Translations under genes and position numbers: made by a program | Assembly: GCA_963675595.2 (NCBI GenBank) | Contig: CAXXLZ010000002.1 | Coordinates: 2,272,001-2,336,000 of the forward strand | Origin: Thermodesulfobacteriota bacterium | GTDB taxonomy: Bacteria; Desulfobacterota; Desulfarculia; JACQYL01 | DNA length: 64,000 nucleotides | Direction of reading: 5' to 3' | Notes under the pieces: model-generated | Seen by the model: only the letters and a program-made list of their open reading frames with translations | Database searches by the model: none | Told to the model about the DNA's origin: nothing | Part shown: positions 36,282 through 49,677 of the stretch, in pieces | Position numbering within the stretch: the first letter of the stretch is position 1 | How the letters are laid out: the number at the start of each line of letters is the position of its first letter

Positions 36282-36734
36282 CTATTCTTTCTCCCCCAGA
36301 CTCCGAATTCTCTCATCCAGAGGCGTGGTTTCCGTCATGCGGAGACCGAAACGATCGTTGACCACCACCACGTCGCCGCGTCCGATGAGATTATCGTTCA
36401 CCAGCAGATCCAACTTCTCCCCCGCGTCCTTGTCCAATTCAATGATGCTTCCCTGGCCCAATTGCATCAGGTCGCTGATCACAAGACGTGTTTCACCCAG
36501 GCGGATCCGCACCACCACGGGAATTCTCAGCAGCAGCTCCAATCCGAGGGTACGAGGCCGTTTAACCGGTTCAGGCGCTTTGGCGGACCGATCCGCCGGG
36601 GGCGCCTCTTCCGACGCAGGAGCCTTCTGTTCGGGCTTCCCTTCTTTGGCGGCCCCCTCCTCGGCGATCCGTTGTTCCTCCAGAGCCTCCGCCCACACGT
36701 CGTCGATATTGTCTATTTGCTCTTTTTCAGACAC
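36282..36734 (-). CDS. fliN: Flagellar motor switch protein FliN (SpoA domain)
   Basis: DDVWAEALEEQ N-terminus; LLLRIPVVVRIRLG...L.QGSIIELDKDAGEKLDLLVN..LIGRGDVVVVNDRFGLR. Confidence 0.88.
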   Translation of the reverse strand: MSEKEQIDNIDDVWAEALEEQRIAEEGAAKEGKPEQKAPASEEAPPADRSAKAPEPVKRPRTLGLELLLRIPVVVRIRLGETRLVISDLMQLGQGSIIELDKDAGEKLDLLVNDNLIGRGDVVVVNDRFGLRMTETTPLDERIRSLGEKE

Positions 36735-36828
36735 CGGGACCTCTTTCCACCAAAATCCCCAAACCGTAACTCCCGCCGTTATGGATCGGCAATCTGAACC
36801 CGCCCGAACGAGAATATCGCATACTCGT

Positions 36829-36837
36829 AGTATACCA
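36829..36837 (-). promoter_or_regulatory. Extended -10 element upstream of fliN
   Basis: Minus strand TG-G-TATACT about 95 nt before the fliN start; no clear -35. Confidence 0.4.
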
Positions 36838-36906
36838 CGAAATTAAAGCCCAACGGCTTCGTAAAAGAAGCAAGGCCCAAAACCGCCTACGGCTTTCGGT
36901 TCTCCA

Positions 36907-38349
36907 CTAAACGTCGAAGACCGCCTGAACTCTCACGGGGACTTCCACCAAGTCCTCCTTGATGACCAGCACTTCCTTACGGCTCACCTTCCTGAGAAAC
37001 ACATGCTTGGCGGGATAGTCCATCCATGCTTCCTGCAATGCCTGTTTCGCCTTTTCCAGAGTTTCGCTTTCCGCCAACTGGGTAAAGGCACCATTTACCA
37101 TGGCATATACTCGGTAGCACTCTCCAAGAATTCTTGCTTCCCCCCGCTCCTCAAGCACGATCTGGGACGGAGGGGCGCCCATGGACTGGGGCGATGCGGA
37201 CCGTTGAGAGCGATCCGCGGCCGGAATCGGATCAAGCTTAGTGTCCGGCAAAGGCTCGGGTTTCGCGGCCGACGGAGGCGGACATTCTCCTCCGTTCATC
37301 TCCTTACGCGCATCCTCCAATAACGCATCCACGGCGCTCTGCTGGGAAAAGTCTTCCGTGTAGGGCGCCGGCTCAATATCCAGAGGAACATCACCCGCAG
37401 TCAAATCAGGGCCCTTGGGAATCATGTCCCGGACGGGCGCAGCAAGAGCTTCCGAATCTTCCTCGACGGCACTCTCCTCAGGCTCCGGAGTCTGTTCCGC
37501 CGGCTCGGAGTCTTCGCTCGCCTCTTCAGGCGCCGGCTCCTCTTCGGCATCCGATTCGATTGAGGAGAAGAGACTTTCGATGGAAGATTGATCCAAAACG
37601 CCGTTGCCTTCGGGTTCTTCCAGCGGAGTCTCTTCTTCCGAATCCGACGAGCCGGATTGGAGCATGTCATTGAGCAGACTGTCAATATCGGCCTGTCCAA
37701 CCAGCCCCCCGGACCCGGTGTCGCCCGTCGACTTCGTCCCGCCGTCGGAAGGCGTTTCGGGTTCAGCCTCCTTCTGCGCGGCTCCGCCCGGCAGACCACT
37801 TAAAAGGGACTCGATGTCGTCTTGAGACATCGTCTCCTTTTTGCGCGGGGGTTCCTTCACGGGTTCGGGTGTCGTGTCACCGCCCGCAGGACTGAACAAC
37901 GCATCAAGGTCGTCCTGCGACAGAACGCTGCCCGGAGACGAAGGTTCCTCGGCTGTTTCCTCCCGATCATCTCCTCCTGCTCCACTCAGCAACAGATCTA
38001 TGTCGTCCTGCGACACGGTACCGCCTGTCTGTTCTTTTTCGGATCCTTTGCCGGACCCGTTGCCTGATTTATTCAAGTACGAATCCATTTCTCTCCGAAT
38101 GGAGGCCATGGTCAACTTGAGAGCGGGTGGAGAGAGCCGATTGAGAAAGGATTCAAGGGCCGCCTTCACCACTTCGACATTGGAATCTTCAAAGTGCTCG
38201 TTATGGCGGTCGAGGAATTGCATGATCTCCTCGACGGTTCCTTTGTACTTCTCTCGCTTGGCAATCTGTATGAGGGCATCCCGTTCGCTGCTGAGCTTCT
38301 TGTTCGCCTCCTCAATGAGCTCGCCCAGTTTGAGTTGTGATCGAGCCAT
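36907..38349 (-). CDS. Hypothetical acidic, largely disordered protein with six SQDDIDALL-like motifs
   Basis: 480-aa frame from ATG 38349: helical N-terminal domain, low-complexity E/P/S/G centre with repeated motifs, small C-terminal alpha/beta domain. Confidence 0.8.
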   Translation of the reverse strand: MARSQLKLGELIEEANKKLSSERDALIQIAKREKYKGTVEEIMQFLDRHNEHFEDSNVEVVKAALESFLNRLSPPALKLTMASIRREMDSYLNKSGNGSGKGSEKEQTGGTVSQDDIDLLLSGAGGDDREETAEEPSSPGSVLSQDDLDALFSPAGGDTTPEPVKEPPRKKETMSQDDIESLLSGLPGGAAQKEAEPETPSDGGTKSTGDTGSGGLVGQADIDSLLNDMLQSGSSDSEEETPLEEPEGNGVLDQSSIESLFSSIESDAEEEPAPEEASEDSEPAEQTPEPEESAVEEDSEALAAPVRDMIPKGPDLTAGDVPLDIEPAPYTEDFSQQSAVDALLEDARKEMNGGECPPPSAAKPEPLPDTKLDPIPAADRSQRSASPQSMGAPPSQIVLEERGEARILGECYRVYAMVNGAFTQLAESETLEKAKQALQEAWMDYPAKHVFLRKVSRKEVLVIKEDLVEVPVRVQAVFDV

Positions 38350-38402
38350 GGTTCTCACCTGTGTCCCGGGTTGTTCGTCACACCGTGTCCCTGTACCCGG
38401 AA

Positions 38403-38418
38403 TACAAAACCCGTGCCG
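38403..38418 (-). promoter_or_regulatory. Candidate sigma-54 (-24/-12) promoter
   Basis: CGGCACGGGTTTTGTA versus consensus TGGCACG-N4-TTGCW; spacing is correct but the -12 dinucleotide is GT, not GC. Confidence 0.45.
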
Positions 38419-38760: not shown

Positions 38761-39036
38761 TTAGTGAGTTATCTCACTCTGCGCTTCTTCTTCCTCGCCG
38801 AGGAAATAGGCATGGTATTCCTCCTCGGCCAAATGTTTCTTGAGCAGCCGACTGATCAAATTGAAGATCTCTTCCAGTTCCTCTTCAGACAAGCGCTTTC
38901 GCAGAAGCTCCATCAACCGATCGTCCGAAAACTTCTGTAGAAAGACGATTACGGTGGCCTCATCCGTCTCTCTGTCCAAACCGAATCCCACAAGCCCTTC
39001 GTATTTCTCCACAAACCGATGCAAGTATTCTTTCAT
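38761..39036 (-). CDS. Small hypothetical cytoplasmic protein
   Basis: Protein-like frame (H.FVEKYEGLVGFGLDRETDE...LQKFSDD.L...HL.EEEYH..FL) with RBS AAGGAAGG; alternative start 39060. Confidence 0.75.
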   Translation of the reverse strand: MKEYLHRFVEKYEGLVGFGLDRETDEATVIVFLQKFSDDRLMELLRKRLSEEELEEIFNLISRLLKKHLAEEEYHAYFLGEEEEAQSEITH

Positions 39037-39112
39037 GTACAATTTCCCTTCCTTTTTCATCTCAACGAGCCCGGGTAGTCCCTGATTCTTCCGGGCGTAA
39101 GCAGGCTGAACA

Positions 39113-42100
39113 CTATTGACCCGACGGGTTCGACGGCGGATCGGAGTTCGTTACCGCTTCGTCGGACCTCAAGCTGAATGTATCGGATTTGAACAGAAGC
39201 CGGTACGCCTGCTCGAAATCGGAAAGATAGTGCGCCTTATCCCCTTGTTTATAGCGAGCGGTGCCCCTGGAAAACAAACATACGATCTCTGCAATCTCAG
39301 GATCCAGACTCTCAAACGAAGACGGTCGGAGGCCGAGCCGCTGAAATTCAGCCGGCGGGGATTCGCCCACCAGTTCCATCGCCCGCGTAAAGGCTTCTTC
39401 AGCTCTCTGAAACTGAAACATCTTGAGATGCATGAGCCCTTTCCTAAAGAAGGCGCCACCATTCTTGGGAGCGAGTTCAACCACTTTGGAAAAATCTTTG
39501 GCCGCAAGATCGTATTCCAGTAATCCCTGATAGGCTTTACCTCGGAGGTAATGGAAAATCGCACGATCGGGATCGTAAACGATGGCTTCGGAATAATCCG
39601 ACACCGCAAGATCGACCTCACCCCGACTCTGATACCCGGTTCCCCGACCAACGAGAAAATCGGCAAAGGATTCGGAGGAACTCGCGTCTATCACCTGCTT
39701 TATGCGTTCGAGCAACTTGATCTCGCGCTCCTTTTCCAGGAAAGCCATACTCCTGCCGAGGCCGAACAACACGCTTTCTGAAGAAGCCCCTGCTTCAGCG
39801 GCCTTGAAGAAATCCTCCACGGCTTCGGAGTGACGTCCCATGCCTTGGAGCGCCCTAGCCCGCCCCAGGTAAGCCTCTCCCAGCTTTGAGTTGATGGAAA
39901 GAGCGCGGTCCAGGTCTCGCAGGGCGGGATCCCAAAGAAGCAACGCAAGGTATGCCTCTCCGCGCTTCAACCAGGCAAGCGCTGATTCCGGATGCTCTCT
40001 GATTTTCTTGGTACATTTGAACACGCCTGAAGGAGAAAGCCCCGTGTCGAGATAGATTTCGCCCTTTATCACGCGGCCCGCACCCACCGGCACACGGGTT
40101 TCCTTCGATCCGGATTTCAGTGAGTGCACGGGTTCAGGGGGCGCAACATCCGCACCGATCACCATACGGTAAGCCTCCAGCGCGTCCTCCCGCGCCAAGC
40201 TCATGCCGCCCGCTCTCGAATAACTCGCTCCCCTGGAAATGAGAAACAGAGGCAGCCTTAGATCGGCAGAAACTCCCAAGAACCGGGATGACGCAGCTAA
40301 ATCGCTCGAAAAAACGCTTCCGGAGCGCTCCAACTCGATGGCTGTCTCAAAATCCCGAATCGCCTCCAATGGTTTATGTAGGACGGCATAAGTCTTTCCT
40401 CGCAGGTAAAACGGGTCCGCGGTCGGATGTCCGTCCTCCATCGCAAGCGTATATTCGGCCAAAGCCTCTTCGGGGTGATGGGAAGCCAAACGGACGTTGC
40501 CCGACAACAGCCTGATTCCCGGTAGCTCCGCCGCCTCCAATGCCGTGCGGAAACGCTCCAAAGCCTCTTCAAGATTTCCCCCATCCGCTTCCCCCAGCGC
40601 CAACCCCGCCAGGTACGCAGCCAATGCATCCCGGCCTAATGCCTGCGAATCGATCGACGCAACGGGATCCGGATATTGGGCACTTGTCACGCCGGCGCCC
40701 GCCAGTCGGCCTGAGGCGAAGGCCGCCTTAACGAGCCCCGCATTGCTCTTCAACGCATTCAGGTAATCGTCCAGCGCCCGATCAAATTGAGAGGTCTCTT
40801 CGTACAATTCGCCTCTCTCCATCAACAAGCCCGGATCCGCTCCCCCGTATTCCAGTGCTCTACCGAGGCTTTCGCAGGCGGCTTCCTGCAATCCCAAGGC
40901 CCGCTGAACGGCACCCTTGACTCGATAAGCCTTCGGCAAATCCGAATCCAACGACAACGCTTTGGCCACATCCGCAGCGGCCGCTCCGTAATTTTTCAGC
41001 GCCATTCGAGCTTCCGCCCGCCCCAAGTATCCGTCGGGTCGGCCCGGGTTTGAGCGGATCAGCGTGTCGAAAGATGAAAGGGCCCGGTCGGGCTTGCCGG
41101 ATGCGAGGAGAGCTTTGCCCTGAATCCGCAAAGCGTCGGGATTCCCGGGAGCCCGCTTCAGAGCCTTTGTCGCGTCCTGAACGACGGCATCCCACACGCC
41201 GCGTTTCAAGTATAGTTCACCTCGCGTCAACAGTCCTCTCAATGAGTTGGGCTCCATTGCGAGGGCACGATTCGCATCGGCAAGGGCGGCTTCCCCGTCT
41301 CCCACCTGTTCCCGAAGTCGGGCACGCTGTAGGAGCACTTCAACGTCACCCGGCGCCGCTTCGAAGGCCGCGTCCAATTCCTCGAGGGCCTGAACCGGCA
41401 TTCCCCTCTCATAAAAACCGGAGGCACGCCCCATCAGAAAGTGCGCGTAGCATCTCCGTCCGTCGTCGGTTTCCATGTGGAAATCGTCTCGAGTCGGCGT
41501 TGTTCCGGATTGCGACTCCTCAAGAACGAGACTTCGCCCCAACGCTTCATGCGCATCGAAAAAGACGGGATCCGACTTCAAGAGCTCCTCGAATCGAGTC
41601 ACGGCTGCGGCATGTTCACCGCGAGACTGCCAAATCAGGCCTTGAAGGAACAGGAGTTCCCGATCCTCCGGTTTCCATCGGAGCCCCTCCTCCACATCAT
41701 GGTCCGCCGGCTCCGTCAGCCCCAAATCCAGGTAAGCCCTCGCTCGCATCCGATACGCTTCAGGTACCTCCGGCTTCAGCTCGGCGGCGCGCGAAAGCTC
41801 CCAAATGGCGGAATCCGGTCGGCCGTTGGCCAAGAATGTCGCAGCATCGGCAATCCGCCGCCGAAAACCGGAGAGGGCGGCCGCCGCACCCACTTTGCCG
41901 AAGCCGAATTCGGCGGTTGGCTTCAGATTTTCAATCAGGGAAGAATACGCGGTAAAAAGTTCGTCTCTCCCCAATTCAATTCGGCCCTGTTTCCCCAAGA
42001 GCCTTCCTCGGCACAGGTGTAGGAAGGGGGACGTCGCTTCGGGGCCCAACGACTCGATTCGCGAGCATCTTCGGACTAGAATTTCTCGGATATCCGTGCC

Positions 42101-43759
42101 CTCGACCTCTTCGGCGTGAAGCGCACGCCCGTAATCCCAAAGAGCCCGATGCGGTTCGCCTGCGGCCTCATAAGCCTTTCCCCGATAATAAAGACCCGAT
42201 TTCGATGATGGTTCCAGCGTCAAGGCCTGATCCATGTCTCCGATCGCGACCACGATTCGGCCCAGGGCGAGGTTGGCCTGTCCCTTGAGTATCCACGCAG
42301 AAGCCGACTTGGGTTCCCCGGCCACCGCTTTTTCCAGTTGCTCGAGAGCTTCGGCGGGGCGTCTCATGTCCAATAGGACCCGGCCGAGCAGGCAGCGGGC
42401 CTCGGCTTCCAGTTCCCCGCTTTGGATACTTTCCAGATCCTTTATCGCGATCTCGTAGAAGCCGAGCCGGCGACAGGCCGCAGCACGGAACAGCCGAAGC
42501 TCCGCCGAGCCCGGATTTTCGTTCAACAGGCCCGTCAAGAGCCTGTATGCTTTGTGGTCTTGCCCGGCGAGCAATTGGGAAACCGCTTGAGATCGAACCT
42601 CTTCCGGGTTGTCGGATGAAACATCTTCGGTCCGGTCCGGCGGGGCAATATCATGGATATCGATCCCCAGCACCTTCCCGAGTCCCAGGACAATGTCTTC
42701 ATTCGCCCGGTTCACGAATCCGGCCCGCTGAAGAAGGCTTCCCCGTGCCACCAGCAGCATCCCGAAGGCCGCCGTGGAATCATACGAGGGAGGAATTCCG
42801 AATTGAGGCAACTTCCATCCCCGCGCCCGAAACGATGAGGACGGGAATTCCTCCACCAGCCGATCGAAATCTTCAAGAGCCTCGGGCATTCGTACCATGT
42901 TCCGGCGGAGCCGGCCTCGAAGAAAGAGGGCCCAAACCAGCCGATCGTCGATTTCCAGCGCCCTGGAATACTCCTTCAAGGCATTCTTGGTTCGGCCTTT
43001 CTTCTCATACAGGAGCCCCAAGAGGCAGTGGACCTCGGGCATTTCCGGATTCAATTTCAGGGCCTCCCGATAATCCACGGCTGCTTCCGCCACGCGGCCT
43101 GATTTGTGAAGCACCGCTCCTCGAAAGGCATATGCCTCAGCCTGAGTGGGGTTGGATTCAATGATGCGAGCGCACTCGGAAAGGGCCGCCTCAACGTCGC
43201 CATGATCGTAATACAGCATGGCCCGGCTCAGGCGAGAGCCGATGAGGGAAGGATCCAGCGATAGAGCCCGGTCATAATCCATTGATGCATTGTCCGGCTC
43301 CCCTGCCTCCAGGTAAGTTTCAGCCCGCAGGTTAAGCAACTCCGTATTGTCCGGCTCGGCGTGCAGGACTTTGGAGTAATCGTCCAACGCCTCAGCCAAC
43401 CTTCCCAGCCGCCGCAGAGCGGCTCCCCTTTTGAGCAACAGCTCTCGGTCTTTCGGGAATGCGCCGATCGCTGCGTCAAGATCCGAGATCGCCGCTTGGG
43501 TTTGTCCCATTTCGAGATAAACTTGAGCGCGCAGTGGATATGCAGCCGAGAAATCCGGGGCCTCCGAAAGGACACGGTTGAGTTCGGTCAATGCCTCGGA
43601 ATATCGTCCCTCCCGCACCAGAGCCTCTCCGCGATGATAGACAGCCTGTAGTTCCGAGGATCGACGATGGTGATGCACTCCCCAAATGCCGCCGACGGCC
43701 AAGCCGACCAGGAGCAGCACGAGAACAAACGGATTGAGTCCAAGAAAGCGTGATTTCAT
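39113..43759 (-). CDS. Very large membrane-anchored tetratricopeptide-repeat protein
   Basis: N-terminal hydrophobic segment (FVLVLLLVGLAVGGIW) followed by dozens of TPR-pattern repeats (RG..Y...G....A..D...AL.L.P). Start could be 43867. Confidence 0.88.
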   Translation of the reverse strand: MKSRFLGLNPFVLVLLLVGLAVGGIWGVHHHRRSSELQAVYHRGEALVREGRYSEALTELNRVLSEAPDFSAAYPLRAQVYLEMGQTQAAISDLDAAIGAFPKDRELLLKRGAALRRLGRLAEALDDYSKVLHAEPDNTELLNLRAETYLEAGEPDNASMDYDRALSLDPSLIGSRLSRAMLYYDHGDVEAALSECARIIESNPTQAEAYAFRGAVLHKSGRVAEAAVDYREALKLNPEMPEVHCLLGLLYEKKGRTKNALKEYSRALEIDDRLVWALFLRGRLRRNMVRMPEALEDFDRLVEEFPSSSFRARGWKLPQFGIPPSYDSTAAFGMLLVARGSLLQRAGFVNRANEDIVLGLGKVLGIDIHDIAPPDRTEDVSSDNPEEVRSQAVSQLLAGQDHKAYRLLTGLLNENPGSAELRLFRAAACRRLGFYEIAIKDLESIQSGELEAEARCLLGRVLLDMRRPAEALEQLEKAVAGEPKSASAWILKGQANLALGRIVVAIGDMDQALTLEPSSKSGLYYRGKAYEAAGEPHRALWDYGRALHAEEVEGTDIREILVRRCSRIESLGPEATSPFLHLCRGRLLGKQGRIELGRDELFTAYSSLIENLKPTAEFGFGKVGAAAALSGFRRRIADAATFLANGRPDSAIWELSRAAELKPEVPEAYRMRARAYLDLGLTEPADHDVEEGLRWKPEDRELLFLQGLIWQSRGEHAAAVTRFEELLKSDPVFFDAHEALGRSLVLEESQSGTTPTRDDFHMETDDGRRCYAHFLMGRASGFYERGMPVQALEELDAAFEAAPGDVEVLLQRARLREQVGDGEAALADANRALAMEPNSLRGLLTRGELYLKRGVWDAVVQDATKALKRAPGNPDALRIQGKALLASGKPDRALSSFDTLIRSNPGRPDGYLGRAEARMALKNYGAAAADVAKALSLDSDLPKAYRVKGAVQRALGLQEAACESLGRALEYGGADPGLLMERGELYEETSQFDRALDDYLNALKSNAGLVKAAFASGRLAGAGVTSAQYPDPVASIDSQALGRDALAAYLAGLALGEADGGNLEEALERFRTALEAAELPGIRLLSGNVRLASHHPEEALAEYTLAMEDGHPTADPFYLRGKTYAVLHKPLEAIRDFETAIELERSGSVFSSDLAASSRFLGVSADLRLPLFLISRGASYSRAGGMSLAREDALEAYRMVIGADVAPPEPVHSLKSGSKETRVPVGAGRVIKGEIYLDTGLSPSGVFKCTKKIREHPESALAWLKRGEAYLALLLWDPALRDLDRALSINSKLGEAYLGRARALQGMGRHSEAVEDFFKAAEAGASSESVLFGLGRSMAFLEKEREIKLLERIKQVIDASSSESFADFLVGRGTGYQSRGEVDLAVSDYSEAIVYDPDRAIFHYLRGKAYQGLLEYDLAAKDFSKVVELAPKNGGAFFRKGLMHLKMFQFQRAEEAFTRAMELVGESPPAEFQRLGLRPSSFESLDPEIAEIVCLFSRGTARYKQGDKAHYLSDFEQAYRLLFKSDTFSLRSDEAVTNSDPPSNPSGQ

Positions 43760-43929
43760 CGAGGCACTTTGTTCCAATGGAAGAGAAGAAGTCTTTACGG
43801 CCCCACCGGGCCCGGTTTGTGAAACGAACTTGCAGGTATCATAAGGCCGAATTGAACTATACCGCATCGAACAAAGATGTCCAATGATCTGTGGTTCGCC
43901 GCCGGCGCAAAAAAATCCCGATCTTACTC

Positions 43930-44166: not shown

Positions 44167-47100
44167 ATGAGAGAGGAGAATGGAAGCGGCCATGAGGCGT
44201 CGGTTGATGAAATGGATCAGCTCAAGAATCGGCTGAGGGTGTATGAGAATCGTTGTTCTCTCTTTTTGAGAGGCTTCGGCGACGCTGTTTACATTTTCCC
44301 CGTGTGGCCGGGCAACGTTCCCGGCAAATTCGAAGAAGTCAACGAAGCCGCCTGCTCCATGTTGGGTTACTCCCGGGAGGCGTTTCTGGAAATGTCGCCC
44401 TTGGATATTGAAGCCCCCACGCCCACCCCATCCATCACGGCAATCCTCGGAACGCTGTCCCTCAACCAACCCCAAACATTCATCACCGCCCAGAAGTCCC
44501 GAACCGGACGAAACATACCCGTCGAACTCAGTATCCGTCTTTTTGCTCATAACGGAAAGACCATGGCGGCCTCCATCGCTCGTCGGCCCTCGGACTCCGA
44601 TTTGCAGAAAACGGCTCCCGGCACCGAACAGGAGAAGTACAAGGCGGTTTTCGAGAACGCGGGCATAGGCATGGACCTTGTGGATAATGACGGCCGTTTC
44701 ATCGAAGTAAATGCCGCTTTGGCTCGTATGCTCGGTTATACGCAAGAAGAACTACAGCACATGGCCATCCATGACGTCACTCATCCGGATGACAAGGAAA
44801 TTTCCGATCACTATCTTCGGGGGGCGATCTCAGGGGCCTTCCCCTCGTATCGGATAGAGAAGCGTTATCGCCGAAAAGACGGGACTACCCTGTGGGCCGA
44901 CCTATCCGTCTCTGCGGTAAGAGATTCCACCGGCCGCCATGTGTCCACCATCGGAGTCATCCAAGACATTACCCATCGCAAACAGACGGAGGATGCCCTC
45001 CGGGCCAAAGAGGAGAAATATCGAACACTGGTTGAAAACGCCGGAGACGCAATCTATGTCGCTCAAGAGGGCACGCTGATTTACCTGAACTCAAAGACTG
45101 AAGAGATATCCGGGTATACCGAACAGGAATTGAAATCCAGGCCGTTCATCGAGTTCATCCATCCGGATGATCGTGCGATGGTGTTGGAGAGACACATAAG
45201 GAGACAACAGGGAGAGGACCTCCCTTCTCAATATTCCTTCAGGATCGTCCGACGTTCCGGAGAAATTCGCTGGGTGGAACTGAACGTCGTTTGTTTGAAA
45301 TGGGAAGGGAAAAACGCCACTCTCAACTTCGTGAGCGACATCACCGAGCGCAAGCAAGCCGAAGATACCATTGCGCGTCGACTGACCTTTGAGCGGCTGC
45401 TTTCACGTATTTCCTCCAAGGCGGTGAAAGCGGACAATCTGCAGGAATTTTTGGATGACTGTTTGGCGGACATGTGTGGGACCTTGGGCGCGACTCACGC
45501 CCACCTTTTTGAGCACTGCGAGGAAACCGACACCATAGACCGGATATCCTCCATGCGCGCCGATGGAAGGTCCCTTGGTGAAGTGCCCCACGGCAACGAA
45601 TCGGATTCCCTCCCCTCCTGCTGGACGCAAGAGCTGCGCAACGGCCGAGTAATCCGTTGCGACGACGTTGAGAGAATCTCCGACGACGAGACAAGAGCAT
45701 ATTTGCGTCGCGGCAATATCCTCTCCGTCTTGGCCGTCCCGCTTTTCGTCGGGAAGAGTTATTACGGTTTTGTTCGCTTCGACATATGCGGAGCCCATTA
45801 CCCATGGCCGCGGGAGTGCCTGGAACTTTTACCCGCCCTCTCCGGAATCATGTCCGGCGTCATAGAACGAAGACGGGCGGATGAGGCCATTCAGACGGCG
45901 GAGGAAACCTACAGGACCATCTTTCTCAATTCTCAAATCGGTTTGTTCAGGACCGACATGAAGACCGGCCTGATGCTGGACGCAAACGATGCCGTGGCAC
46001 AGTTCGCCGGGTACAAGGACAGGGAGGAACTGCTCGCGGATCGGTTCAACATCGCGGAGCGCTACGTGGGCCCGGACGACCGGCAAAGAATGATTTCTCA
46101 ATTAGAGGCCAAGGGTGAGATAAGAAATTTCGAGGCACCCTTCAGGAAGAACGACGGTTCCGTCATACTCGTTCGATTCTCCGGCAGAGTTCACCATGAT
46201 AAGGGATGGATCGAAGGAGTATCCGAAGACATCACGGAACGAAAGCTGGCGGAGGAGGCGTTGCGCGAAAGCATCCTGCGTTACGAACTCGTTCTGGAGG
46301 GGGCTTCCGGGGGTATTTGGGATTGGGACGTGGCCAAGAAACGTGTGCACTTCTCCTCCAGTTGGAAAGCTATGCGCGGCTACGACGACAACGAAATAGG
46401 CACCGACGAGTCTGAGTGGAGTAAGAGGATTCATCCTGACGACGCCCCTCGAATCATGGAAGGAGTCCGGGCCCACTTCGCCGGGGAATCCCCCTTCTTC
46501 GAAGAAGAATACCGTGTTCGCTGCAAAGACGGCTCCTGCAAATGGGTTCTTGCCCGCGGCAAAGCGTTCCGCGATGCAAACGGTCGGATCGTGCGAATGG
46601 CGGGATCGGAAATCGACATTACCGAGCGGAAACGTACCGAAGCGGAGCGGGTGAGGCTGCAGGCTCAGTTGACTCAGGCTCAAAAGATGGAATCCGTGGG
46701 CCGTCTCGCGGGAGGCGTGGCCCATGACTTCAACAACATGTTGGGCGTGATTCTCGGTCAGACCGAGATGGCGCTGGCCCAGACCGATCCCGCCCATCCG
46801 TTATTCGCCCGTCTCCACGAAATCCAAAAGGCGGCCCAGCGCTCCGCGGACCTTACCCGGCAATTGCTCGCATTCGCCCGCAGGCAAACCATCAGCCCCA
46901 AGATTCTTGACTTGAATGAGACCGTGGAGGGGATGCTCAGAATGCTGAGGCGCCTCATCGGCGAGGACATCGATTTGGCTTGGCATCCCGGCAGAAACCT
47001 TTGGCCGGTCAAGATGGACCCTTCCCAAATAGACCAAATTTTGGCCAACCTGTGCATCAACGCCCGCGATGCCATTGCCTGTGTGGGGAAGGTCACCATA

Positions 47101-47802
47101 GAAACGGGCAAGGCGAATTTTGACGAAGAATACTGTGCGGACCGCCCTGGATTGGTTCCGGGCGAGTACGTTTTGCTGTCCGTGGCCGACAACGGTTGCG
47201 GTATGGAAAAGGCGACACTGGCCAATCTCTTCGAGCCCTTTTTCACCACCAAGGAGATGGGCAAAGGTACGGGCCTTGGATTGGCGACGGTCTACGGCAT
47301 TGTGAAACAGAACAACGGATTCATTGAAGTCCACAGCGAAAAGGGACTGGGCACCGTTTTCAAGCTCTACCTCCCGAAGCACGAGGGCCTGGAGGAGCCG
47401 ACCAACGTTGAATGCGTCATCAAAGATGTGGCTCGAGGCCACGAGACCATTCTTCTGGTTGAGGATGAAACGGCCATATTGGACATGGCTAAAACCATGC
47501 TGGAGAGGCTCGGATACCGGGTCGTGGCCGCCTGCACTCCCGGTGAAGCCATCCGATTAGCCGAGGACCACGCCGAAGAAATCAATCTGCTCATGACCGA
47601 TGTCGTCATGCCCGAGATGAACGGTCGGGAGTTGGCCGAACGCCTGCTTACCCTGTACCCGAACCTCAAATGCCTCTTTACGTCGGGCTACACCGCCGAC
47701 GTGATCGCGCATCACGGCGTCCTCGATGAGGGCTTGAACTTCATTCAGAAGCCTTTCTTGTTTCAGGATCTGGCCTTCAAACTGCGAGAGCTGTTGTCGT
47801 GA
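44167..47802 (+). CDS. Cytoplasmic hybrid sensor histidine kinase (5 PAS, GAF, HisKA, HATPase, REC)
   Basis: Repeated HPDD/DITERK motifs; [21 protein letters not shown]; NARDA; DNGCGM; [13 protein letters not shown]; receiver LLVEDE...MTDVVMP...QKPF. No TM segment seen. Confidence 0.94.
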
Positions 47803-48090
47803 ACCAACCGATTCCGATTCATCGCCCTCTCTCTGAGCGGTTCCGCGATGTACATGTTCGCGATGATTGCCGACCCGTTCTTTCTTGCACGCTTCAAGCG
47901 CCGGCAATGAAAGGCATCGGAAACAACGAGACTGAAATTTGAAAGGAGGGAAAGAAGCCCATTGAGCCGAGGAAATGGGCCCGACCGGCGGCCGCTCTTT
48001 GGTTGGGACGGACGTAGTCAATGAGAGTCCGTGACGTGCGCGGGCGAAATGCCTGCGGGATGATTGAGAGGACAAGGGGGAGACGAAGTG

Positions 48091-49677
48091 ATGATTTGGC
48101 TGAAAAATCTGAAGATCGGTACCAGAGTAGGGCTTGGCTTCACCGTTATTATCATTTTCATGCTACTGATCGGGTATGGCGGTTTTCTTGGTGTCAATAC
48201 CGTAAAATACGAGCTAAACGACATCTTTGAGACCAGATTTCCCAGCCTTGATTACCTGATCGAGGCCGACCGCGACCTTCAACAGCTCCTCGTTGCGGAA
48301 AGGTCCATGATCTTCGCCGACGCGAACTCCGAGGTCTTCAGGCGGTTGCTTCAAGATTACGAGCAGAACCTGAAGCAATCGGAAGAACGGATAGGCAAAT
48401 ACGCCGCTCTCTCCATTACCCCGGAAGAGCGTAAAATCATACTTGAGTACGAGTCCGCCGCGAAAGAATGGAAGGAGGTGTCCAGGCGGGTGCTGGAAGC
48501 TCGGATGGCGGATACTCCCGAAAGTCGTCGAGAAGCCACTGACCTCACCTTGGGCGAGGCGGAAAAGAAATTCGAAGAAATGAGGGAGTATATCGACACA
48601 TTGACGGAGCTGGTACTCAAGCTCGCGCGAGAAGCTCATCAAAACGCCGAAAGCATGTATGACAGGACCATCTACACGCTTATCGGAATCATAGGCGTCG
48701 GCTTACTGGTGGGCATTGTGTTGATGTGGCTCATGAATCGGGCGATCACGCGTCCCCTGAGAGCCGCCATTGAAGGATTGACCGGCATTTCGATGCAGGT
48801 GGCCTCCGCCTCCGGCGAGGTGGCGTCTTCGAGTCAACAACTGGCAGAGGGTTCGTCCGAGCAGGCGGCGTCTTTGGAGCAGACTTCGGCCTCACTGGAA
48901 GAAATGTCTTCCATGACCCGGCAGAATGCGAACAACGCCGGGAATGCCGATGGCCTGATGAAAGGGGCGCAAGAGGTGGTGGACATGGCGAATACGTCCA
49001 TGTCCCAACTCACGGCCGCTATGGAGGAGATATCCAATGCCGGCGCCGAGACATCGAAGATCGTCAAAACCATCGACGAGATAGCTTTTCAGACCAATCT
49101 GCTGGCGTTGAACGCCGCGGTGGAGGCCGCCCGCGCAGGTGAAGCCGGAGCCGGTTTCGCGGTGGTGGCTGACGAAGTGCGGAACTTGGCCATGCGCGCT
49201 GCGGATGCCGCCAAGAACACGGCCGGTCTGATCGAGTCCACCATCAAGAAAGTCGGTGACGGGTCGGAACTGGTCACCAAGACGAACGGCGCCTTTTCCG
49301 AGGTGGCCGCCAACTCTAAAAAAGCGGCCGAGCTGGTCGCGGAAATCGCCGCGGCTTCCAACGAGCAGGCCCAAGGCATCCAGCAGGTCGGGATCGCCAT
49401 CGCCGAGATGGACAAAGTGACTCAAAGGAACGCGGCCAACGCCGAAGAGTCCGCCTCCGCCTCGGAGCAAATGAGCGCCCAGGCGGAACAAATGAAAACG
49501 TACGTTGGCTATTTGGAGAGGTTGGTCGGCAGCCGTAGGGAAGAGTCGCAAACACGGCGGATCGGTTTTTCCCGTGCCGGACGAAAAGGGTCTCCGGCTG
49601 ATGCTGCGGGCGGGAGAAAGAGTCTACCGGCTTCGACGGGTATCGTCAGGCATTCCGGCTCGAAACAGCAGGAATAG
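48091..49677 (+). CDS. Methyl-accepting chemotaxis protein with four-helix-bundle sensor domain
   Basis: Two TM helices; [37 protein letters not shown]; methylation helices EQAASLEQ and [10 protein letters not shown]. Confidence 0.95.

Follow-up and report, generated by a model that had tools for sequence, protein, structure and literature searches.

The window analysed here is a stretch of 64,000 nucleotides (nt) of a Thermodesulfobacteriota bacterium (assembly GCA_963675595.2, contig CAXXLZ010000002.1, positions 2,272,001 to 2,336,000 of the forward strand). Two adjacent genes on its reverse strand are the subject of this report. The upstream gene, called X here, encodes a protein in which six short peptides resembling the N-terminus of the flagellar protein FliM are displayed along an acidic linker. 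The downstream gene, fliN2, encodes a FliN paralog. An earlier note, prepared from the letters of the window, had drawn attention to this pair. The features of both genes are listed below with their positions in the window, their strand and, where applicable, their extent in amino acids (aa) of the corresponding protein. Invariant residues refer to an alignment of six homologs of X, whereas helices and pLDDT (predicted local distance difference test) values refer to an AlphaFold model of X based on six homologs.

36907..38349, (-): gene X, an open reading frame (ORF) of 480 aa, with an N-domain and a C-domain on either side of an acidic disordered linker that bears six motifs
38065..38349, (-): N-domain of X, aa 1-95, five predicted helices at pLDDT 70-85; best-conserved part of the X family, with many invariant columns
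37987..38016, (-): motif 1, VSQDDIDLLL, aa 112-121; S113, Q114, D116, D118, L120 and L121 invariant; predicted helix at 114-122
37894..37923, (-): motif 2, LSQDDLDALF, aa 143-152; Q145 invariant
37801..37830, (-): motif 3, MSQDDIESLL, aa 174-183; Q176 invariant; predicted helix at 177-182
37672..37701, (-): motif 4, VGQADIDSLL, aa 217-226; Q219, I222, D223 and L225 invariant; predicted helix at 219-230
37567..37596, (-): motif 5, LDQSSIESLF, aa 252-261
37372..37419, (-): further conserved element of the linker, P..PDL.AGDVPL.IE, aa 311-326; P311, P314, G319 and V321 invariant
37318..37347, (-): motif 6, SQQSAVDALL, aa 335-344, more degenerate, orthologs keeping QQ..VDA[IL]; predicted helix at 339-347
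36910..37164, (-): C-domain of X, aa 396-480, small alpha/beta domain predicted as beta-beta-beta-alpha-beta-beta
36282..36734, (-): fliN2, 150 aa, GTG start at 36734, downstream of X after a gap of 172 nt (C2:2308282-2308734)
36669..36704, (-): N-terminal W-motif of FliN2, DDVWAEALEEQR, aa 11-22, pattern D-x-W-A-x-A-L-x-E-Q-R
36327..36539, (-): SpoA (FliMN_C) domain of FliN2, aa 66-136, from family scans

The motif array of X

The X reading frame starts with an ATG at 38349, preceded by AGGTGAG at 38354-38360, and the same start is found in the homologs. In the AlphaFold model the linker (aa 97-404) is predicted to be disordered, with pLDDT below 50, and the only short helices proposed within it are the four listed above, which coincide with four of the six motifs. 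The linker is strongly acidic, with 75 Asp and Glu residues against 18 Lys and Arg in 309 aa. All six motifs announced in the earlier note, with spacings of 31, 31, 43, 35 and 83 aa, were recovered at the positions it had given. The motifs were counted by means of a loose pattern, [SGDTENA]Q..[ILVM][DE].[LIMF][LFIM], which is matched by five of the six, motif 6 being out of register by one residue. In 20,000 shuffles of the X sequence this pattern was present 0.014 times on average and twice at most, compared to the five occurrences observed. When the complete 6.79-Mb genome was scanned in all six frames, taking every stop-to-stop frame of at least 60 aa, one or more loose matches were found in 77 of 58,180 frames; a single frame besides that of X contains two matches and only X contains more.

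The earlier note had further held that neither the linkers nor the DNA are repetitive and that the motif appears to be selected at the protein level. Tandem Repeats Finder reported nothing relevant in the X region and the linker DNA is dissimilar from one segment to the next, in keeping with the first of these statements. The statement nevertheless requires an amendment, as the DNA encoding the first three motif cores is mutually similar (74-84% over 19-46 nt, at a spacing of 93 nt). Such a likeness, confined to the motif cores, would fit an old duplication of which only the peptides have been preserved. Among the six homologs, which display 36-93% identity, nearly all the invariant columns of the linker are motif residues, with the exception of the element P..PDL.AGDVPL.IE, which is unrelated to the EIDAL motif of FliM discussed below. 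The number of motifs varies from 3 to 9 among the close homologs of X. Selection at the protein level is supported by the shuffles, by the genome scan and by the invariant motif columns, and the array of X is, on this evidence, real and under selection.

The resemblance to FliM includes the protein of the same genome, whose N-terminus starts MSQILSQEEVDALLRGVSGGE and contains LSQEEVDALL. FliM N-termini were collected from 29 loci of the phylum and every one of them fits [IVL]L.Q.E[VI]D[AS]L[LI]. The consensus of the X motifs, [VLM]SQDD[IL][DE].L[LF]SG.GG, has its core in common with these N-termini, and several X motifs match the FliM peptide of the same genome past this core, in the segment LL-[RS]-G-x-[SG]-GG. 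At the position equivalent to D12 of FliM, an Asp or a Glu is present in all six X motifs. In Escherichia coli, FliM D12 forms a salt bridge with K119 of CheY (bioRxiv 10.1101/781468). The EIDAL motif of FliM is described as a CheY-binding element occurring sporadically in FliN and FliY (PMC6946799). An interaction of FlhG with FliM/N by way of the FliM N-terminus, or with FliY in Bacillus subtilis, is also described, the EIDAL motif being named there for FliY (PMC12826062). Judged by its sequence, X is a multivalent docking scaffold of the FliM N-terminal (FliM-N) type.

No significant family was obtained when X was compared with Pfam and NCBIfam, the best matches (E values of 0.062 and 0.14) lying far below the cut-off. 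X is therefore considered to lack a CheC or SpoA domain, and the earlier note was right on this point. A crude test revealed no membrane segment. The C-domain, modelled by itself, reached a mean pLDDT of 83.5, and the pattern YR.Y...G...E...K...RKE.LVIKE is conserved in it across the homologs. Fold searches with the whole of X, N-domain included, returned nothing clear (best Foldseek E 0.5, best VIA-wide Z 4.9), and no fold match was obtained with the C-domain alone (best Foldseek E 0.17, best VIA-wide Z 4.1). The CheY-binding P2 domain of CheA did appear in the fold search, at rank 49 with a Z of 3.0; it stood level with unrelated folds and was given no weight. ESM Atlas look-ups of the N-domain and of the C-domain provided no usable match, and a profile built from 15 members of the X family had no match at E ≤ 1 among the sequences of the PDB.

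FliN2 and the conservation of the pair

FliN2 scores 91.6 bits against TIGR02480 (cut-off 84.05) and 75.4 bits against PF01052 FliMN_C (cut-off 23.8). Because a canonical pair made of fliM (336 aa) and fliN (111 aa) is located elsewhere, at C2:77043-78318 and thus 2.2 Mb from X-fliN2, fliN2 is a second paralog and not the fliN gene of the switch operon. The gene following X on the same strand had been called an orphan fliN in the earlier note, a description which is correct when understood as a second paralog. The canonical FliN of this genome is devoid of any EIDAL-type peptide. The W-motif of FliN2 is present in one copy in family f1 and in two or three copies in family f2 (L013:10016-10531; L014:6565-7068), and is absent from canonical FliN. 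Compared with the Pfam family FliN_N, it scores 21.4 bits, below the 24-bit cut-off, and E ≤ 0.01 is reached in two of the five orthologs. A complex prediction combining two copies of FliN2 with full-length X, run without controls, gave values of 0.00 and 0.00 for the interaction prediction score from aligned errors (ipSAE), which weigh neither in favour of binding nor against it.

When the N-domain was used as query, an X homolog was detected in all five genomes of the order and in none of the 90 other genomes of the class. In each of the other four genomes of this order, the gene directly after X on the same strand encodes a FliN paralog, and the pair is consequently present in five of five. 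The three SpoA genes, encoding FliM, canonical FliN and FliN2, are all found in G000, G002, G003 and G004; the 71% complete G001 shows FliN2 only. The neighbourhood of the pair differs between the two families of the order. In family f1 the wider synteny around X-FliN2 comprises hisS, aspS, a biotinyl carrier, a SnoaL protein and a 99-aa ORF. The neighbours found in family f2 are unrelated to these and consist of a TonB-dependent receptor, an enoyl-CoA hydratase, an ABC-F protein and an MFS protein. Three further FliN2 relatives of metagenomic origin are carried by contigs equal in size to those of three X relatives. The X ortholog of G001 (L014:7109-8649, -) is distributed over two frames with its C-domain shifted, which reflects a frameshift or else a mistake in the assembly of this metagenome-assembled genome.

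A candidate promoter element was also located upstream of X:

38403..38418, (-): sigma-54-like -24/-12 element, CGGCAC-N5-TTGTA, lying 69 nt before the start codon of X; degenerate, identified by pattern match only

Near-consensus elements of sigma-54 type, likewise known by pattern match only, are found at -79 in L011 (TGGCAC-N5-TTGCT) and at -62 in L012 (TGGCAT-N5-TTGCT). Three of the five genomes thus have a sigma-54-like element at a distance of 62-79 nt before X; a similar one can be discerned by eye in L014 and none in L013.

Several genes surrounding the pair were also considered. The 99-aa ORF of family f1, at 38761-39060 (-) in the window, is located upstream of X and encodes an acidic helical product with about 64% identity in the two other f1 genomes. 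It has no family match, and no counterpart of it was found next to X in family f2. The gene that comes next upstream on this strand, at 39113-43867 (-), encodes a protein of 1584 aa with an N-terminal transmembrane (TM) segment followed by many tetratricopeptide repeats (TPR). This gene was ruled out as a part of the unit, since tblastn did not find it in L011 or L012. A candidate for a third conserved gene, sought after fliN2 in family f2, was rejected as well, as it amounted to a weak local match of 51 residues. A hybrid histidine kinase with PAS and GAF domains and a receiver domain (44167-47802, +) and a methyl-accepting chemotaxis protein (48064-49677, +) are encoded 6-10 kb from X.

Motif arrays in other proteins

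A profile of six X homologs was searched against 1.84 billion representative proteins. This search returned 261 proteins at E ≤ 0.001, including 82 at E ≤ 1e-10; most of the 261 match the array region only. The array proteins were classified with hidden Markov models (HMMs) built in this analysis, and the counts that follow relate to the best 150 of the 261. At least three loose motifs are present in 131 of these proteins, at least five in 107 and at least ten in 23, the maximum being 23. The X family is represented by 20 proteins matching at least one terminal-domain HMM, 14 of them matching both, with motif counts of 0-7. A larger group of 41 proteins ends in a TM segment and a FliL-like domain and carries 3-16 motifs. 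Five proteins end in a FliN SpoA domain, among them P0058, a FliM with five motifs. The other 84 are of various types; 43 of them contain a TM segment according to a crude test and many continue into TPR-like regions. P0025, P0040 and P0063 are examples of arrays fused to TM and TPR-like proteins.

Known families account for few of these proteins. When 85 array proteins were compared with Pfam at E ≤ 0.001, FliMN_C was matched by three, FliL by three, CheZ by two and FliM by one, and most had no family. The CheZ matches may originate solely from the C-terminal peptide of CheZ. The names of ten array proteins were looked up and all ten are unnamed or hypothetical. Alignment of the N-domain of X with the N-domains of two other array families using hhalign brought out no relationship (probability 0.4% and 0.1%).

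Arrays are also encountered within the phylum, where a single-protein query gave an array match in 8 genomes of a 401-genome sample. The array gene of genome G253 (L077:6331-9078, -) encodes 16 motifs and a FliL-like end, and is embedded in flagellar genes in the order flhA-flhF-(ParA/MinD-type)-fliA-[array]-...-fliK-flgF/G. In sister families of the class, a different acidic-repeat family, found at L080:6644-8287 (+) and also at L034, L036 and L039, contains up to nine copies of LGQDDLDSLL/DDLDALLAELGG between conserved ends, IIDLVE at the N-end and FERVARE...EIEAIK at the C-end.

Two further observations concern single motifs. The canonical FliN encoded at L086-L090, in family f3 of this class, is 146-150 aa long and carries one N-terminal EIDAL-like motif, LTQHDLDRLM or ISQNDIDKLM, followed by QDWGDPGP. 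Long open frames near fliM in genus g9 were considered as possible FliM proteins with N-terminal arrays; they proved to be GC-rich upstream read-through, with a single motif per FliM.

Ligand, mechanism and relation to known systems

The reading proposed in the earlier note presupposes a genome that encodes CheY, and a canonical CheY-like receiver is indeed encoded at C2:67804-68217, within the flagellar cluster. A reading of its sequence indicates that it keeps the Tyr and Lys equivalent to Y106 and K119 of E. coli CheY. The same genome contains two CheA genes, FlhF in the flagellar cluster, a complete set of switch genes, and 36 receiver-domain (REC) ORFs of 160 aa or less, the CheY-like receiver among them. 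CheX-type phosphatases are encoded as well, the only CheC/CheX matches lying away from X, and CheZ (PF04344) was not detected in the genome at E ≤ 0.001.

The ligand of X is most likely phosphorylated CheY (CheY~P), bound at or near the motor. In the mechanism that we propose, X would be a cytoplasmic protein whose disordered acidic tether of about 300 residues displays six amphipathic helices copying the EIDAL peptide of FliM-N. Each helix would capture one receiver of CheY~P type on its alpha4-beta5-alpha5 face. X would work together with its dedicated paralog FliN2, which would join the FliM/FliN base of the C-ring through its SpoA domain. The pair would thereby bring additional CheY~P capture sites to the switch and would serve there as an antenna or local reservoir tuning the sensitivity of switching. 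What we infer here is that CheY~P is the ligand, that X and FliN2 are in contact, that they are positioned at the motor and that they influence switching. The complete proposal, in which X and FliN2 act at the C-ring as a scaffold that offers several docking sites to receivers of CheY~P type, is accordingly put forward as tentative, with doubt slightly exceeding confidence.

A number of observations weigh against this proposal. FlhG binds the same N-terminal peptide of FliM and FliY (PMC12826062), and sequence cannot separate the two readers. The distant members of the X family possess just 0-3 strict motifs. The sole distant X-family locus retrieved, L047, encodes a 485-aa homolog flanked by trmD-rplS-yraN on one side and a phosphomutase on the other, and a FliN neighbour is absent. 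A third SpoA gene is present in 13 of the 90 other genomes of the class, where the N-domain of X has no match. The window contains no flagellar gene besides the X-fliN2 pair, the methyl-accepting chemotaxis protein being 10 kb away. Finally, the LGQDDLDSLL array of L080 is placed between an apurinic/apyrimidinic (AP) endonuclease and valS, outside flagellar genes, and not every array of this kind need therefore serve the motor. The absence of a FliN neighbour at L047 implies that the two-gene module is specific to a lineage and does not define the family. The module described in the earlier note accordingly stands for the five genomes of the order, where it persists among changed neighbours, and does not extend to L047.

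Another possible reader of the peptides is FlhG, a MinD-type ATPase. The arrays would then titrate or concentrate FlhG and take part in the control of flagellar number, placement or C-ring completion, in the manner of the HubP/FimV hubs, with FliN2 as a cargo or assembly partner. FlhG recognises the N-terminus of FliM, or in B. subtilis that of FliY (PMC12826062), and several contexts are suggestive of such a role: FlhF belongs to the flagellar cluster of the genome, the 16-motif gene of G253 comes directly after flhF, a ParA/MinD-type gene and fliA, and the crude TM segment found in 43 of the 84 unclassified array proteins, often continued by TPR-like regions, is reminiscent of landmark proteins. 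However, the presence of at least six sites per chain would be better suited to the abundant and fast-exchanging CheY~P than to a low-copy ATPase, and the CheZ-like and FliM-like contexts of some arrays point to CheY, with the reservation that the 2 CheZ matches out of 85 are perhaps due to the C-terminal peptide only. Within this genome, the family search that was made covered FlhF. Taken together, a hub for FlhG appears improbable. The likelihood is somewhat smaller that X acts off the motor, as a free cytoplasmic buffer or 'sponge' soaking up CheY~P or other single-domain receivers and thereby setting their free concentration and the response time, in which case the adjacency of FliN2 would reflect co-regulation only. 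This would be compatible with the lack of a membrane segment (by the crude test) or recognisable motor-binding domain in X, with the FliN-less neighbourhood of the L047 homolog and with the many short receivers of the genome. The X-FliN2 pair is nevertheless kept in five of five genomes across changing neighbourhoods, which goes beyond usual co-regulation, and the fusion of arrays to FliN, FliM and FliL-like motor proteins elsewhere argues for action at the motor.

The acidic helices could also constitute a general docking motif of the LD-like kind, read by FliN2, by the export ATPase complex or by a non-flagellar protein, X being an assembly or export adaptor whose likeness to FliM-N is convergent. 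The LGQDDLDSLL/DDLDALLAELGG family, with its location outside a flagellar context, would be accommodated by this scheme, as would the further conserved elements of X (the N-domain, the C-domain and P..PDL.AGDVPL.IE) and the repeated W-motif of FliN2, which itself needs a reader. It is at odds with the match to the FliM peptide of the same genome, running past the core into LL-[RS]-G-x-[SG]-GG, and with the anchoring of 46 of the best 150 array proteins to FliL-like, FliN or FliM domains. We consider a convergent adaptor of this sort quite unlikely, and the least probable of the alternatives presented here.

The proposal of a CheY~P scaffold made of X and FliN2 can be extended to the arrays found in other proteins. 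Arrays of FliM-N-type peptides would then form a widespread and undescribed class of 'CheY~P antennas' mounted on differing motor-proximal anchors, a generalisation that we regard as doubtful. Depending on the lineage, the anchor would be the cytoplasmic tail of FliL, FliN, FliM, a TM-TPR protein, or the soluble X together with FliN2, the latter being a split and soluble version of the device. The antennas would build up a local CheY~P reservoir around the switch, possibly condensate-like, and would set the sensitivity of the motor and the speed of its response. No paper on multi-copy arrays or on the architecture of X was found in the full-text literature searched, most subscription journals being outside its coverage. 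In current models of switching, each FliM subunit contributes a single docking peptide for CheY~P, which amounts to about 34 per motor. Many bacteria may carry chains with 3 to 23 extra docking peptides at or near the motor; if this is true, the local capture of CheY~P could be tuned, along with cooperativity and adaptation, by means that have been neither modelled nor measured. X-FliN2 represents a clean and testable two-gene case. A connection between chemotaxis signalling and the control of flagellar number could also pass through the arrays, since FlhG reads these peptides too.

Among known systems, the closest likeness in the peptide itself is to the EIDAL peptide of FliM (LSQxEIDALL), with which the X motifs share the core sequence, the acidic residue at D12 and the predicted short helices. 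FliM possesses one such peptide at its N-terminus, whereas X contains six internal copies (aa 112-344) in a disordered chain and is devoid of the FliM middle and SpoA domains. The C-terminal peptide of CheZ is also acidic and amphipathic and tethers CheY~P. CheZ carries one copy of it on a phosphatase helix bundle, and X has no match to CheZ (PF04344). By analogy only, X can be set beside the polar hubs HubP/FimV and the eukaryotic paxillin LD scaffolds, in which numerous short acidic docking motifs borne by a flexible chain bring together multiple copies or types of partner; unlike hubs of HubP/FimV type, X has no LysM, TM or FimV domain. In FliY of the Bacillus/Thermotoga type, an EIDAL peptide, a CheC-like phosphatase and a FliN SpoA domain are united in one chain. 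Like FliY, X-FliN2 brings together putative CheY-docking peptides and a SpoA domain of FliN type, separately from FliM; it differs from FliY by being split over two genes, by having no CheC-like domain and by displaying six peptides instead of one.

Two accessory proteins acting through or related to FliN can be compared with the pair by their published descriptions. FtgA of Actinoplanes missouriensis is an accessory protein which attaches to the core of FliN and brings the motor to a halt (PMC11522434). It would resemble X in being a lineage-specific accessory acting through a FliN with an extended N-terminal region; its gene lies in a che cluster, and it is not described as having docking arrays (PMC11522434). 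FssF of Caulobacter crescentus is a second FliN homolog whose localisation depends on the C-ring. Swimming does not require FssF, whereas directional switching does, and the authors of that work suggest, as a speculation, that the CheYII site is supplied by it (PMC11580411). FssF and FliN2 are alike in being second, SpoA-only FliN paralogs encoded apart from canonical fliN. FssF is 103 aa long and its description names no docking-array partner (PMC11580411), whereas FliN2 has the W-motif extension and a conserved upstream X. The requirement of FssF for switching and not for swimming (PMC11580411) shows that a FliN paralog can specialise in CheY input, and X-FliN2 would add to the recent evidence, such as that from FssF, for FliN paralogs specialising in chemotaxis input.

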